A DNA stretch of 64,000 nucleotides from Vicinamibacteria bacterium (GCA_963837165.1 CAWIMD010000002.1:1543029-1607028), one strand, 5' to 3'; counted from the stretch's first letter, positions 5,132 through 62,832 are shown. The notes: generated from the letters alone by a model not told the origin. Program-made: numbers and translations.

Positions 5132-5187
5132 CCTATCCTCCTATCCTCCTATCCTCCTATTCTCCTATCCTCCTATCCTCCTATCAC
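5132..5187. repeat. Family A octamer array, CCTATCCT x7 (minus strand reads AGGAGGAT)
   Basis: Read directly. The metH stop TAG (5173-5175) lies inside the array. It is followed downstream (on the minus strand) by the kinase promoter and start. Confidence 0.95.
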
Positions 5188-8100
5188 CTCCCTGACCGGC
5201 TCGTACGCGAGATTCGGCGCGAGCCAGCGCTCGACCTCCTCCACCCGCAGGCCCTTCCGCCGCGCGTAGTCGGCCACCTGGTCGGCGCCGAGGCGGCCGA
5301 CCATGAAGTAGCGCGCCTCGGGGCTCGCGAAGTACAGCCCGCTCACGCTCGCCGCCGGGGTCATCGCGAAGTGCTCGGTGAGCGCGAGGCCGGCGTCGCC
5401 GGCGCCCAGCAGATCGAACAGCCGCCCCTTCTCCGTGTGATCCGGACACGCCGGGTAGCCGAAGGCCGGCCGGATGCCGCGGTAGCGCTCGGCGACCAGC
5501 TCCTCCTTCGAGAAGTGCTCCGCGCCGCCGTAGCCCCACTCCCGGCGCGCCTCGCGGTGCAGGTACTCGGCAAACGCCTCGGCCAGCCGGTCCGCCAGCG
5601 CCTTCACCATGATGGCCTGGTAGTCGTCGTGATCGGCCTCGAAGCGGCGGGCGAGCGCGTCGGCGCCGATGCCGGAGGTGACGGCGAACGCGCCGAGGAA
5701 ATCCTCGCGTCCGCTGTCCACGGGCGCCACGAAGTCGGCCAGCGACCGGTTCGGCCGGTTGTCGGCAATGGCCTCCTGCTGGCGCAGCATCGGGAAGCGG
5801 GCCCGCTCGCGCTGCCGCGTGGCGTCCTCGAACAGCACGATGTCCTCGCCATCGGAGGCAGCGGGCCAGAAGCCGAACACGCCGCGTGCCTCGAGCGTCC
5901 GGTCGGCCACGATGCGATCCAGCAGCGCGCGGGCGTTGTCGTACAGCTCCCGTGCGGCCTTCCCGTACTCCGGATGCTCGAAGATCCCCGGCACGCGTCC
6001 TTTCAGCTCCCAGGCGTGGAAGAAGAACGTCCAGTCGATGAAGGGCACGAGCGCCTCGAGCGGCACGTGCACGACGCGCCGGCCGATGAACGACGGCACG
6101 GGCAGATCCGCGGCCTGCCAGTCCAGCCGCAGGCGATTGGCCTGCGCCTTCGCGTACGGCAGCAGGGGCCGGCTCTGGCGGTTTCCGTGCTGCACGCGGA
6201 GCGTCTCCTGCTCCTCGCGCGCGGCCGCCACGAACCCGTCGCGCCGTTCGGGACTGAGCAGGCTCGCCACCACGTCCACGGCGCGCGAGGCGTCGAGCAC
6301 GTGCACGACCGGACCGCTGTACTCCGGCGCGATCTTCACGGCCGTGTGCTGCCGGCTCGTGGTGGCGCCGCCGATCAGGAGCGGCAGCTGCAGGTGCCGC
6401 CGCTCCATCTCCCGGGCCACCGAGACCATCTCGTCCAGCGACGGCGTGATGAGCCCGCTCACGCCGATCAGGTGCACGCCCTGCTCGGCGGCCGTCCGCA
6501 GAATCACGTCCTGGTGCACCATCACGCCGAGGTCCACGACCTCGTAGTTGTTGCACCCGAGCACCACGCCGACGATGTTCTTGCCGATGTCGTGGACGTC
6601 GCCCTTCACCGTCGCCAGCAGCACCTTGCCCTGCACGTCGCGCCCGCCCGCCGCCTTGTCGGCCTCCATGAACGGCTCCAGGTACGCGACCGCGCGCTTC
6701 ATCGCGCGGGCGCTCTTCACCACCTGCGGCAGGAACATCTTGCCGGCGCCGAAGAGCCGGCCCACGGTCTTCATGCCGTCCATCAGCGGGCCCTCGATGA
6801 TCTGCAGCGGCCGCGCGTAGGCCTGCCGCGCCTCCTCGACGTCCTGCTCGATGAAGTCGACGACGCCGTGCACCAGCGCGTGCGACAGCCGCGCCTCGAC
6901 GGGCGCCTCGCGCCAGGCCAGGTCCACCTCGCGCTTCTTCCCGGCGCCCTTCACGCGATCGGCCAGCTCCACCAGCCGCTCGGTCGCGTCGGCGCGCCGG
7001 TTGAACAGCACGTCCTCGACGTGCTCCAGCAGCTCGGCCGGGATGTCCTCGTACACCGCCAGCTGGCCGGCGTTGACGATGCCCATGTCCATCCCGGCGG
7101 CGATGGCGTGATAGAGGAACGCCGAGTGCATCGCCTCGCGGACGACCTCGTTGCCGCGGAACGAGAACGAGAGGTTGCTGACGCCGCCGCTGATCTTCAC
7201 GCCGGGGCACGTCTGCTTGATGACCCGGGTGGCCTCGATGAAGTGCTTCGCGAACTCGTTGTGCTCCTCGATGCCCGTCGCCACGGCCAGGACGTTGGGG
7301 TCGAAGATGATGTCGGACGGGTCGAGCCCGGCAGGCCCGGTCAGCAGGCGGTACGCGCGCTGGCAGATCGCGACCTTCCGCTCGACGGTGTCCGCCTGGC
7401 CCTGCTCGTCGAACGCCATCACGACCACGCCGGCGCCGTAGCGCCGCACCAGGGCGGCCTTGTGCAGGAAGTCGGCCTCGCCCTCCTTGAGGCTGATCGA
7501 GTTGACCACGGGCTTGCCCTGCACGCACTTGAGGCCGGCCTCGATGACCGACCACTTCGAGCTGTCGATCACGAACGGCACGCGGGCCACCTCGGGCTCG
7601 GTCGCCAGGTAGTTCAGGAACGTGGTCATGGCGCGCTCGGAGTCGAGCATGCCCTCGTCCATGTTCACGTCCAGGAAGTTCGCGCCGGCCCGCACCTGAT
7701 CGAGCGCCACCTGCACGGCGCCCGCGTAGTCGTCGTCCCTGATCAGCCGCGCGAAGCGCTTCGAGCCGGTGACGTTGGTCCGCTCGCCGATCATCTGGAA
7801 CGTGCTGTCGGGGCGGATGGTCAACGGCTCGAGACCCGAGAACTGCGAATACGAGGTGCTGGGTGCCGGGTGCTGGGTGCGGGGTGCGGTGCGGGGTGCC
7901 GGGGGCGGGGTGCGGGGCGGCAGGCCCTGCACGCGCCTGGCAATCGCCGCGATGTGCTCGGGCGTCGTGCCGCAGCAGCCGCCGACGATGTTGAGCCAGC
8001 CGCGGGAGGCGTACTCGCCGAGCAGCGACGAGGTCTCCTCGGGCAGCTCGTCGTAGGCGCCGAACGCGTTCGGCAGGCCGGCGTTCGGGTAGCAGCTGAT

Positions 8101-61321: not shown

Positions 61322-62713
61322 ATGCACGCTTCGCGTCCTCTGGCTCTCGCCCTGGCGCTCGTCGCGGCGGCGGTGGCGTGGCCGTCCGCGCAGGCGACCT
61401 CCTGGATTGACGCCTATCGCGAGCCCGCCAGCCGCATCATCGCGGCGGCGACGTCCAGCGACTTCGCCTGGCAGCGCCTCGCCTATCTCACCGACACCTT
61501 CGGCAGCCGGTTGAGCGGCTCCCGCTCGCTCGAGGACGCCATCGACTGGGTCGCCGCCCAGATGCAGAAGGACGGCCTCGAGGGCGTGCACGAGGAGCCC
61601 GTGAACGTGCCGCACTGGGTCCGCGGCGCCGAATCCCTCGAGATGGTGACGCCCCGCCAGCACCGGCTCCCGCTGCTCGGCCTCGGGCTCTCGGTGGGCA
61701 CGCCGCCGGATGGCATCGAAGCCGACCTGATCGTCGTCGAGAGCTTCGTCGAGCTGGAGCGGCGGGCGGCGGAGGTCCGCGGCAGGATCGTCCTTTTCAA
61801 CGCGCCGTTTCGCGGCTACGGGCCGACGGTCGCCTACCGCGTCAACGGCCCGTCGCACGCCGCCGAGGCGGGCGCCGTGGCCGCGCTCGTGCGGTCCGTC
61901 GGGCCGGCCGGGTTCCAGACACCACACACGGGCATGCTCACCTACCGGGAGGGCGCGCCGAAGATCCCCGCGGCGGCTGTCACCGCGGAGGATGCCGACC
62001 GCCTCGCCCGCATGGTCGGCCGGGGCCAGCACGTGCGCCTCCGGCTCCGCATGGGCGCCCAGATGCTGCCGGACGCGCCCTCGGCCAACCTGGTGGCCGA
62101 GATTCGCGGCCGGGAGAGGCCTGAAGAAATGGTGGTCGTGTCAGGCCACTTCGACTCGTGGGACGTGGGCGCCGGGGCCACCGACGACGGCGGGGGATCG
62201 GTGGTGGCGTGGGAGGTGGCGCGCCTGCTGACGTCGCTCGATCTCAGGCCGCGCCGCACGATTCGCGTGGTGCTCTTCACGAACGAGGAGAACGGGCTGC
62301 GCGGCGGCCTCGGCTATCGCGACCGCCACCGGGACGAGCTCGGCAGCCACGTGCTGATGATCGAGTCGGACTCCGGTGTGTTCGCGCCGCTCGGGTTCGG
62401 GCTCAGCGCGAACGACACGGCCCGCGCGCAGGCCACCTCGATTGCCTCGCTGCTGTCGTCGACCGGCGCAGTGCGCATCTCGGCGTCCGGCGGGGGCGCC
62501 GACATCGGCCCGAGCGTGGCGGCGGGACGCGTGCCGGCGATGTCGCTGGAGGTGGACGGCACGCGGTACTTCGAGATCCACCACACCGCCGCCGACACGG
62601 TGGACAAGATCGATCCCGGTGAGCTCGCCCGCTGCGCGGCGGCCATGACCGTGATGGCCTACGTCGTGGCCGACATGCCGCAGCGCTTCGGCGAAGCGCC
62701 GGGCACGCGCTGA
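61322..62713 (+). CDS. M28-family secreted metallopeptidase (aminopeptidase/carboxypeptidase Q-like)
   Basis: ATG 61322. It has a signal peptide. It contains VVSGHFDSWDVGAGATDDGGG and HHTAADTVDKID. Confidence 0.8.
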   Translation: MHASRPLALALALVAAAVAWPSAQATSWIDAYREPASRIIAAATSSDFAWQRLAYLTDTFGSRLSGSRSLEDAIDWVAAQMQKDGLEGVHEEPVNVPHWVRGAESLEMVTPRQHRLPLLGLGLSVGTPPDGIEADLIVVESFVELERRAAEVRGRIVLFNAPFRGYGPTVAYRVNGPSHAAEAGAVAALVRSVGPAGFQTPHTGMLTYREGAPKIPAAAVTAEDADRLARMVGRGQHVRLRLRMGAQMLPDAPSANLVAEIRGRERPEEMVVVSGHFDSWDVGAGATDDGGGSVVAWEVARLLTSLDLRPRRTIRVVLFTNEENGLRGGLGYRDRHRDELGSHVLMIESDSGVFAPLGFGLSANDTARAQATSIASLLSSTGAVRISASGGGADIGPSVAAGRVPAMSLEVDGTRYFEIHHTAADTVDKIDPGELARCAAAMTVMAYVVADMPQRFGEAPGTR

Positions 62714-62832
62714 CCATTTGTTCATTGATGATTGATGATTGACGATTGACGATTGAAGAGCGTTGCTCGCCAATGTTCAGTGAGCAATCGTCAATGATCA
62801 ATCGTCAATCGTCAATGATCAATCGTCAATGA
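62714..62832. repeat. Two family C heptamer arrays in inverted orientation (62722-62756 GATTGA-type; 62784-62832 TCAATCG-type) separated by about 27 nt
   Basis: They lie between convergent M28 peptidase (stop 62711-62713) and fahA (stop 62819-62821, inside the right array). Confidence 0.95.

Follow-up and report, generated by a model that had tools for sequence, protein, structure and literature searches.

Tandem arrays of 7- to 9-nucleotide units at the gene boundaries of a Vicinamibacteria bacterium, and a conserved cassette of inverted arrays around a PF05635 gene

Introduction

Why should the boundaries between ordinary genes be filled with short tandem repeats? The question is raised by a 64,000-nucleotide stretch of a Vicinamibacteria bacterium genome (GCA_963837165.1, CAWIMD010000002.1:1543029-1607028; hereafter the window, to which all coordinates refer unless a relative is named), in which units of 7-9 nt are repeated head to tail in one intergenic gap after another. 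An initial annotation of the window described five families of such arrays, guessed an acidobacterial-type genome and proposed that the rules of position and orientation imply a function. Our preferred reading, held with about even confidence, is that the arrays are long-unit simple sequence repeats (LSSRs), slippage-driven satellites that are confined between stop and start codons by purifying selection on the flanking genes. For most arrays no evidence of a sequence-specific function was seen; the hairpins formed by inverted pairs of arrays, and a conserved cassette in which two complementary arrays bracket a PF05635 gene, do point to a constrained structure. These results document arrays at very high density in Vicinamibacteria-type Acidobacteriota, which are among the most abundant and least studied soil lineages.

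Repeats of the heptamer type have been known since 1990 in cyanobacteria, and since 2007-2015 in Xanthomonas, Burkholderia and Beggiatoa. To our knowledge, no mechanism or function has been established for them to date. Long simple sequence repeats (SSRs) with units of 5-11 nt, heptamers being the commonest, were reported in large, often high-G+C genomes of non-pathogens, and slippage was proposed as their origin (Mrazek et al., 2007, cited here through the summaries given in PMC4692102 and PMC4679880). The GGGAATC repeats of Xanthomonas and the GGGGA(C/T)T repeats of Nostoc are intergenic, close to stop codons and transcribed (Rehm et al., 2015; PMC4692102). In Xanthomonas they differ in length between Xcc and Xac at conserved positions and are single or inverted, with 70-75 inverted pairs per genome; oligonucleotides of both units form G-quadruplexes (G4) in vitro, and no regulatory role was found in that study. 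TAACTGA repeats were described in Beggiatoaceae, directly upstream of start codons, and a repeat-binding protein was suggested (MacGregor, 2015; PMC4679880). The class having been described in these three studies, the window arrays extend a known class and are not a new kind. The statement of the initial annotation that no equivalent had been described was therefore too broad for the class; it agrees with our literature search in that we found no description of long-unit tandem repeats for Vicinamibacteria or Acidobacteriota.

Results

Array inventory

Tandem Repeats Finder (TRF), with arrays counted at a period of 7-9 nt and at least 3.5 copies, returned 22 arrays in the 64 kb (Table 1), compared with 0-1 array (mean 0.05) in each of 20 dinucleotide-preserving shuffles of the window. 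The arrays thus have the properties of LSSRs, head-to-tail units in the 5-11-nt range present beyond the expectation from composition. Their density is 3.4 per 10 kb and they cover 1143 of the 3616 intergenic bases (about 32%), in DNA that has 70% G+C throughout. At least six unit families are represented, and 18 of the 22 arrays are solitary. Purity can be high: the array at 12759-12858 consists of 12.5 perfect copies of TCCCATCC, and the one at 10548-10662 of 14 copies with 96% identity. Every array listed in the initial annotation was recovered by TRF, with the same unit and with coordinates that were exact or within a few bases; that list was real and incomplete, since it lacked the GGTGCGG (7855-7920), CAACTCC (60178-60236) and GAAGGCT (43459-43493) arrays.

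Several known types of element do not account for the arrays, and the earlier dismissal of terminators, insertion sequence (IS) ends and CRISPR was upheld. CRISPRs are made of 24-48-nt repeats separated by unique spacers of similar length; the units here are contiguous, without spacers, and Rfam and tRNA scans of the window gave no match. Canonical promoter and terminator motifs, searched at 55-64 kb, were not in excess over shuffles. A larger mobile element carrying the arrays was rejected: when the flanks of same-family arrays in the window were compared they were unrelated, with no common sequence seen. Contingency loci are SSRs in the promoter or 5' coding region of surface or virulence genes, where the copy number acts as an on/off switch; the window arrays lie between housekeeping genes (ilvD, ilvB, ilvN, ilvC, metH, lutABC-like), and the coding ones keep the frame.

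Placement relative to genes

Genes were mapped with a fixed codon-position G+C (GC3) model in which the start is chosen before gene picking. Checked against Pfam, nearly every call was domain-supported, and the model reproduced all 49 Pfam-supported stops as well as the database gene calls of the relative L003. A self-trained (expectation-maximization) gene finder was rejected, as it converged on antisense frames at 70% G+C. On the retained map, 33 gaps exceed 25 nt; 19 of them carry an array and 16 are at least 40% array. The initial figures, 15 of 27 gaps largely made of array and more than 20 gene boundaries occupied, were close and slightly high, respectively.

The proposed rule that arrays extend from a stop codon to the next ribosome-binding site or start was largely borne out. 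Among the 15 informative (co-oriented or convergent) gaps, 14 have an array that contains the upstream stop or lies at most 8 nt from it, and in nine no more than 10 nt separate the end of the array from the next start. Array units provide the stops of ilvD, ilvB, ilvC, metH and the gene at 62819. Many of the family C arrays are intercistronic spacers of a single operon, pheA-ilvD-ilvB-ilvN-ilvC (55288-61284). The placement rule is the outcome expected from purifying selection on the flanking genes. Two gaps are long and without short-unit arrays, 33941-34423 (483 nt) and 55005-55287 (283 nt); the first is upstream of a dinB (Pol IV) gene and has 23-nt repeats at 34011-34077.

Arrays read as protein

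Nineteen arrays are intergenic and three are coding (7855-7920, 43399-43493 and 48952-49148). An array enters a reading frame only if its overall length leaves the frame intact, through 66 nt at 7855-7920, a 24-nt super-period at 48952-49148 or a 9-nt unit; the other arrays read as protein are C-terminal tails translated to the next stop, which include the downstream B arm of the PF05635 cassette described below. The family B array at 48952-49148 had been assigned to a gene boundary. It lies in frame inside a lutB-like LUD/Fer4 gene, where it encodes a 61-residue Gly/Ser/Asp-rich insert, (GSGDLGGR)n, between the two domains, so that the gene-boundary description is right for most arrays and wrong for this one. 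The insert is absent from the four relatives compared.

As no stop codon comes before it, the 43399-43493 array (+) is read as a 29-residue C-terminal tail (TQRTQR...) of a C-N hydrolase, and the PF05635 protein has a tail DPQIPSPP... encoded at 9923-10116 (-); in both cases the gene has lost its own stop. In the relative L003, an hmgA-like ORF (open reading frame) is likewise lengthened by about 30 residues by an array. Finally, the 1579-residue ORF 5173-9912 (-) consists of metH (5173-8910) and an ArsR-HTH/SAM (S-adenosylmethionine)-methyltransferase gene (9001-9912) fused in frame via the family D array at 8915-8998. Deleting one base of the 10-nt unit of this array gives a His-rich tail and a TGA that overlaps the metH ATG; since removal of a single base restores the stop, this is either a real fusion or a single-base (homopolymer) assembly error. 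Such arrays disturb annotation, as they supply or erase stops, add repeat-encoded tails, apparently fuse neighbours and insert 61 residues into an enzyme.

Orientation and unit composition

Divergent gaps are uninformative for orientation. At co-oriented gaps and 3' ends, family C has ATTGACG on the sense strand at eight of nine sites. Families A, D and F are consistent at two of two informative sites each, and family B and the CAACTCC family are split one to one. The fixed orientation per family that had been claimed is thus strong for family C only, agrees with the two sites each of A, D and F, and fails for B and CAACTCC.

Sense-strand units are purine-rich (0.57-0.88), and three of them, AGGATAGG, ATTGACG and AGGCAGT, present a stop codon in every frame. 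The reverse complements of the family units have no stop in any frame. As the stop-free orientation lets the upstream ORF run through, which happens at the D and B arrays, a translation filter is enough to produce the orientation bias. At the level of sequence, the G4 motif (G3+N1-7 x4) is matched by units A1 and B only; families C, D and F have no G3 tracts, so that G tracts are not a property of all families.

RNA structure

Folded as RNA, solitary arrays have minimum free energies of 0 to -2.5 kcal/mol (about -11 for family C) and z-scores of -1.2 to +2.4, no better than shuffled sequences. The inverted pair in the segment 62711-62835 folds at -66 kcal/mol (+ strand) and -58 kcal/mol (- strand), with z about -9. 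Inverted pairs found in spacers of two relatives have z-scores of -6.2 (L207) and -4.6 (L206), and the overall range is -4.6 to -9.1. The self-folding that characterizes repetitive extragenic palindromes (REPs) and REPINs is therefore absent from solitary arrays and seen with inverted pairs alone.

In the window, ilvN is itself bracketed by inverted family C arrays (59570-61323), ATTGACG upstream and CGTCAAT-type downstream. Pairing between its two flanking spacers, ilvB-ilvN and ilvN-ilvC, is thus conceivable in the operon transcript and would loop out ilvN.

Conservation and turnover in relatives

The nearest named ilvC homolog comes from a Vicinamibacterales metagenome-assembled genome (MAG), which supports the initial guess of an acidobacterial-type genome. 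The relatives compared were L001-L003 (ENA long contigs), L004 (MEGAHIT), L005 (JGI), L205, L206 (Logan assembly of Illumina run ERR481110) and L207 (JGI). In the syntenic loci of L001-L005, the gaps contain 7-nt arrays of other units (CTCGTCA, GGACGAG/TCGTCCT, GATTGCG, AGTGCCA/CACTTCG), with 3-5 arrays per 10 kb. The arrays are thus a property of the whole lineage, beyond this window.

Turnover was followed at four ilv-region spacers in seven genomes. L206 and L207, whose ilvC is 89-90% identical, have family C units in the same four spacers, arranged differently: inverted pairs are present at ilvB-ilvN in L207 and at ilvN-ilvC in L206, and the window has solitary arrays at both. An inverted pair between the convergent M28 peptidase and FAA-hydrolase genes is common to the window, L206 and L207, as is a 'wrong-way' CAATCGT arm beside the ilvC start. 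At ilvN-ilvC, a different 9-mer is found in L205 (92% identical), and L005 has almost no array at two of the four spacers. In this region, array presence is partly conserved, sequence is not and arrangement is fluid. Copy number is also polymorphic between close relatives: the window differs from L206 and L207, L131 and L133 have 100% identical ORFs with 7.2 vs 11.2 and 5.2 vs 7.2 copies, and L147 and L155 have 8.3 vs 11.3.

In the distant relatives L003 (13690-13800) and L005 (14300-14470), the M28 peptidase/FAA-hydrolase spacer contains several copies of a 22- to 24-nt REP-like palindrome (GTAGGCCCGAGCTTCAGCTCGGGC), a different type of repeat in the niche held by the inverted array pair in the window.

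The same heptamer in other phyla

Species-representative genomes were scanned for the exact 28-mer (ATTGACG)4, and at least 118 stretches were found. The matches listed, to which the following figures refer, include Acidobacteriota (other Vicinamibacteria, Pyrinomonadaceae and Terriglobia among them), Chloroflexota, Bacteroidota, Planctomycetota, Gemmatimonadota, Desulfobacterota, Nitrospirota, Verrucomicrobiota and a few others. Matches are rare in Pseudomonadota, Bacillota and Actinomycetota, phyla that are heavily represented among sequenced genomes. These loci contain 320 arrays in 797 kb (4 per 10 kb); because 267 of the 320 are heptamers, of many different units, hosts of (ATTGACG)n are generally rich in heptamer arrays.

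Folding of the ATTGACG arrays at the matches listed gave 33 first hairpin arms, 17 second arms and 75 solitary arrays, that is 50 of 125 paired; in other Acidobacteriota, 14 of 23 were paired. In co-oriented gaps of these genomes, the sense strand carried CGTCAAT in 28 of 35 cases and ATTGACG in seven, the reverse of the window, as called with our own gene finder, which is less reliable at intermediate G+C. Many of these cases are hairpin arms. A universal orientation rule for ATTGACG was therefore rejected.

A PF05635 gene bracketed by inverted arrays

The inverted family B arrays at 9961-10116 and 10548-10664 bracket a minus-strand PF05635 gene (23S_rRNA_IVP, Pfam E 1e-25), with the G-rich arm upstream on the sense strand and the C-rich arm downstream, through which the ORF runs on. 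The duplex energy of the two arms (9961-10664) is -258 kcal/mol. The layout, a PF05635 ORF between complementary inverted flanks, is like that of ribosomal intervening sequences (IVSs). A Pfam search over the window genes found no transposase domain, so that the array-flanked gene does not correspond to a REP-associated tyrosine transposase (RAYT) gene. An Acidimicrobiia MAG (L025, 4440-4960) has a PF05635 cassette with CGTCAAT-type arms.

The arrangement proved to be widespread. Eighty PF05635 homologs from soil metagenomes were examined (L125-L204), 72 of which had enough flanking sequence. An array of 8-10 nt units, mostly 9 nt, was present upstream in 56, downstream in 52 and on both sides in 42. 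The upstream arm was G-rich in 54 of 56 loci and the downstream arm C-rich in 50 of 52, and 30 of the 56 upstream arms matched the G4 motif on the sense strand. The units vary widely among loci; where both arms are present, the upstream and downstream units are reverse complements of each other in 37 of 42, with at most two mismatches. The solved structure closest to the PF05635 protein is 2GSC, XCC0516 of Xanthomonas campestris, which has five chains. In Xanthomonadales (L208-L217; X. campestris, other Xanthomonas, X. sacchari and Lysobacter) the PF05635 gene separates accB from accC, and its upstream and downstream arrays consist of GGGAATC-type and GATTCCC-type units, respectively. A search of 72,556 plasmids with the PF05635 protein returned 18 records, mostly from Nostoc, Calothrix, Anabaena and Aulosira, with a few other cyanobacteria and Gemmatirosa. 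Ten of the 11 plasmid loci inspected (L218-L228) have a purine-rich 7- to 8-nt array upstream and the complementary array downstream, and the two take up the spacers on either side as far as the adjacent genes. Two plasmid cassettes, L222 (Anabaena sp. 90 pANA02) and L223 (a Picosynechococcus PCC 7003 plasmid), are inside CRISPR-Cas operons, at cas6-cas4 and cas10-cmr3.

We found no description of an array-PF05635-complementary array cassette in the searchable literature. PF05635 is related to Avd, the accessory protein of diversity-generating retroelements (DGRs; PMC10053308), and the GGGAATC work makes no mention of the bracketing of XCC0516 by a pair of arrays (PMC4692102).

Three proposals about the cassette were rejected. 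Selection on its stem at the RNA level was not visible: because sense and antisense duplex energies are equal, the sense duplex being stabler in 20 loci and the antisense in 22, there is no strand-specific (G-U) signature. Dependence on operon read-through does not hold in soil, since 47 of 55 loci have a convergent gene as downstream neighbour; in plasmids and Xanthomonadales the PF05635 gene is co-oriented within operons. The cassette is not supported as the source of all array families, since in 50 kb of a Nostoc plasmid its unit occurs at the cassette alone and other families dominate, and in soil loci unrelated heptamer families are found beside the 9-mer arms. A PF05635 gene was detectable in one of the at least 118 ATTGACG loci.

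Features of the window

Coordinates of arrays and of the cassette gene are collected in Table 1. Among other genes, three paralogous Ser/Thr protein kinase genes (1-2382, 2471-5074 and 52401-55004, all on the - strand) encode C-terminal PD40/WD40-like beta-propeller repeats. The Pfam match of a short-chain dehydrogenase ORF (40141-41089, +) starts at profile position 101, the upstream part being in another frame; this is probably a frameshift, due either to a pseudogene or to an assembly error.

Table 1. Positions of the tandem arrays and of the array-bracketed gene in the 64-kb window
Feature	Position	Strand	Remarks
Family A array	5132-5187	-	Sense (AGGATAGG)7; holds metH stop; 57 nt short of next gene
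GGTGCGG array, 66 nt	7855-7920	-	Within metH; translated as Pro/Ala-rich linker
Family D nonamer array	8915-8998	-	Between ArsR-methyltransferase gene and metH; open in frame; one 10-nt unit
Family B array	9961-10116	-	PF05635 cassette downstream arm; sense (AGATCCCC)n, C-rich; ORF continues through to 9923
PF05635 gene (23S_rRNA_IVP, four-helix-bundle, Avd-like)	10120-10540	-	Loop between the two B arms
Family B array	10548-10664	-	Cassette upstream arm; sense (GATCTGGG)14, G-rich; abuts DUF6526 gene stop
Family C array	11110-11143	-	Sense ATTGACG; 8 nt from ilvA stop, 8 nt from next start
Family A array, 12.5 perfect copies	12759-12858	-	Divergent gap upstream of ilvA; unstructured as RNA
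Family F array (AGGCAGY)	17997-18026	+	Overlaps stop codon of upstream gene
Degenerate CAACTCC-like units, then family C	21841-21915	-	Fill gap between two minus-strand genes
Family D array	23153-23206	+	Divergent gap, upstream of GMC oxidoreductase gene
Family A array	30761-30821	-	Fills entire 58-nt gap; supplies upstream stop and GGAGGA 5 nt before ATG of EVE-domain gene
Family F array	32235-32269	-	Begins at ABC-F gene stop codon
Two isolated family A units	41190-41205	+	Sequence
Family D and GAAGGCT array (43459-43493)	43399-43493	+	29-residue C-N hydrolase tail; convergent gap
Family A array	46712-46755	-	Divergent gap, 15 nt upstream of cyclophilin gene
Family B array	48952-49148	-	In lutB-like gene; 24-nt super-period; 61-residue in-frame insert
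Family C array	49986-50020	-	Contains stop codon of CCG-domain gene
Family C array	57809-57862	+	ilvD-ilvB gap; first bases are ilvD stop codon
Family C array	59570-59611	+	ilvB-ilvN gap; ilvB stop in first unit
CAACTCC array (x8.4, 60178-60236), then opposite-orientation family C (TCAATCG)	60178-60268	+	ilvN-ilvC gap
Family C array	61278-61323	+	ilvC-M28 peptidase gap; holds ilvC stop and peptidase ATG (61321, last unit)
Inverted family C pair	62714-62832	.	Between convergent genes; hairpin

Discussion

The initial annotation took the rules of position and orientation as a sign of function. This was not supported: the arrays turn over fast, change copy number, run through ORFs and, elsewhere, reverse their orientation. 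In the reading that we prefer, replication slippage would generate the arrays and template switching would create the inverted copies, and purifying selection on the flanking genes would confine both to intergenic space, favouring the orientation that places the purine-rich or stop-containing strand in the mRNA. Solitary arrays may then serve as spacer RNA without structure, fixing the distance between cistrons and at times contributing a stop or a Shine-Dalgarno-like motif. Inverted pairs form very stable stems that are probably REP-like, with a role in 3'-end protection, termination or RNase III processing, and one such pair would be the stem of the conserved cassette around the PF05635 gene.

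Several observations weigh against slippage and purifying selection as the whole explanation. Across relatives, the presence of an array in the spacers ilvN-ilvC and M28-FAA is conserved, though the sequence differs. Slippage does not explain the identical (ATTGACG)4 28-mer in at least 118 stretches across many phyla, and alone it leaves family C at nine separate sites with unrelated flanks in 64 kb unexplained. Xanthomonas, X. sacchari and Lysobacter keep the unit type at the orthologous PF05635 site, suggesting constraint. Finally, slippage and selection do not account for the location of PF05635 genes within array hairpins, seen in at least five phyla or orders.

A tentative proposal, which we hold to be unlikely, would make short arrays and PF05635 proteins one system, a counterpart of REPINs and RAYTs: the protein might recognise tandem units on DNA or RNA, its own gene being an autonomous or autoregulated copy in a hairpin loop and the many hairpins without an ORF and the solitary arrays its dispersed sites. 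If true, this would be the first molecular handle on repeats that have been unexplained since 1990. Because the cassette spans organisms from cyanobacteria and soil Acidobacteriota to Xanthomonas, for which a protein structure (2GSC) and studies of the repeats exist, a cultured and tractable test system is available.

A related explanation, which we consider unlikely, is that the arrays are binding sites of a multimeric nucleic-acid-binding protein, with one subunit per unit, in a post-transcriptional or DNA-level network in which the pentameric PF05635 protein would serve as partner, alone or as one among several paralogs. TRAP (trp RNA-binding attenuation protein), which binds GAG repeats, is a model for such binding. 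In the window, in L025, in 42 of 72 soil loci, in Xanthomonadales and in 10 of 11 plasmid loci, a purine-rich array lies on one side of the PF05635 gene and the reverse complement of that array on the other; the unit differs between hosts, yet the cassette arms stay complementary. The five chains of 2GSC, the resemblance of PF05635 to Avd (PMC10053308), the identity of the Xanthomonas cassette unit with the genome-wide GGGAATC family (PMC4692102) and the repeat-binding protein proposed by MacGregor for TAACTGA (PMC4679880) all agree with it, as does the near confinement of plasmid PF05635 matches to cyanobacteria that bear STRRs (short tandemly repeated repetitive sequences). However, the window PF05635 gene is touched by family B alone, families A, C, D, E and F having no such gene nearby; in the 50 kb of Nostoc plasmid the cassette unit is confined to the cassette and other families are dominant, and the gene is present in one of the at least 118 ATTGACG loci. 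Binding by members of the PF05635 family is known from DGRs alone, and array turnover appears too fast for a stable regulon.

That the basic element is instead a mobile or self-propagating inverted-array hairpin, a counterpart of REPINs or of MITEs (inverted-repeat transposable elements of miniature size), with the PF05635 cassette as autonomous form and solitary arrays as decayed halves, is in our judgement quite unlikely. RAYT genes are flanked by inverted REPs, and the single-copy PF05635 gene at accB-accC in Xanthomonadales, flanked by the host array family, is RAYT-like in this respect. Pairs are indeed frequent, with 70-75 per Xanthomonas genome (PMC4692102) and with 14 of 23 ATTGACG arrays paired in other Acidobacteriota and 50 of 125 across phyla, the ATTGACG arm being first in 33 vs 17 of the matches listed; L207 (ilvB-ilvN) and L206 (ilvN-ilvC) have pairs where the window has solitary arrays. 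Against this, 18 of the 22 window arrays are solitary, the window arrays and their flanks show no target-site duplications or conserved ends beyond the arrays, and the family of the cassette unit dominates neither the Nostoc region nor the soil loci. The equal duplex energies of sense and antisense strands (20 vs 22) also make no strand-specific RNA selection visible. We know of no nuclease or recombinase activity of PF05635 proteins, which further argues against mobility.

An action of the G-rich families, A (GGGAGGAT) and B (GGGGATCT), via G-quadruplexes or i-motifs on DNA or RNA, the other families being bystanders, is improbable. As judged from the motif, A1, B and the 30 of 56 PF05635 cassette upstream arms could fold in this way, and oligonucleotides of GGGAATC and GGGGA(C/T)T do so in vitro (Rehm et al., PMC4692102), but families C, D and F (AGGCAGY) cannot form G4 and yet obey the same placement rules, Rehm et al. 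found no regulatory role, and at two family B sites the sense strand is the G-rich one, at one site the antisense strand. That the arrays are assembly or polishing artefacts of long-read metagenome assembly, as the origin of the window in a 1.7-Mb contig and the homopolymer indel-like 10-nt unit at 8915-8998 might suggest, has practically no chance of being true, because independent Illumina and long-read assemblies (JGI, Logan ERR481110, MEGAHIT and ENA) agree on equivalent arrays at orthologous spacers of syntenic loci, and such arrays are also present in Xanthomonas isolate genomes and cyanobacterial plasmids.

How, then, do LSSR satellites of the window compare with known systems? The cassette resembles the 23S rRNA IVSs of Leptospira and Coxiella in that a PF05635 ORF occupies the loop of a long inverted-flank stem; the window host, in contrast, is an mRNA operon or intergenic region and the stem is made of tandem repeats. 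With REPs, bacterial interspersed mosaic elements (BIMEs) and REPINs the window shares abundant extragenic hairpins in operons and at convergent ends, and a single-copy gene flanked by inverted repeat copies. Unlike REPs, its hairpin arms are tandem arrays of 7-9 nt units, not an imperfect palindrome of 20-40 nt, and solitary arrays are structureless; unlike RAYTs, the bracketed gene encodes a four-helix-bundle protein, not an IS200/IS605-type transposase.

The TAACTGA repeats of marine Beggiatoaceae, also found in cyanobacteria and Bacteroidetes, are like (ATTGACG)n in their patchy cross-phylum distribution and in being a stop-bearing heptamer. They present stops in every frame and are found in forward orientation directly upstream of starts, where they overlap the position expected for the ribosome-binding site, whereas the window has a different unit and its arrays are anchored more tightly at the upstream stop than at the start. 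The G4 repeats of Xanthomonas and Nostoc are, like the window arrays, intergenic, near stops, single or inverted, and variable in length with position kept; family B of the window (GGGGATCT) is nearly identical to their motif and longer by a single base. A single family accounts for the Xanthomonas repeats, at about 186 sites per genome; the window has at least six families, most of them G4-incapable.

The closest analogue remains the one suggested in the initial annotation, the STRRs of cyanobacteria, which is correct as a class, that of long-unit simple sequence repeats in which a few units are reused at many intergenic sites. In the strict sense STRRs are the heptamers CCCCAGT, TTGGTCA or CAACAGT of Nostocales; units and phylum differ here, so that the likeness is an analogy of class and not membership. 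LSSRs, cyanobacterial STRRs and the window arrays have in common short head-to-tail units that are not a multiple of 3, a mostly intergenic location, a few units at many loci, heptamers as the commonest length and large non-pathogen genomes as hosts. The window differs from them by its Acidobacteriota (Vicinamibacteria-type) host, its other units, its mixture of 7-, 8- and 9-nt families and its very high density of arrays.

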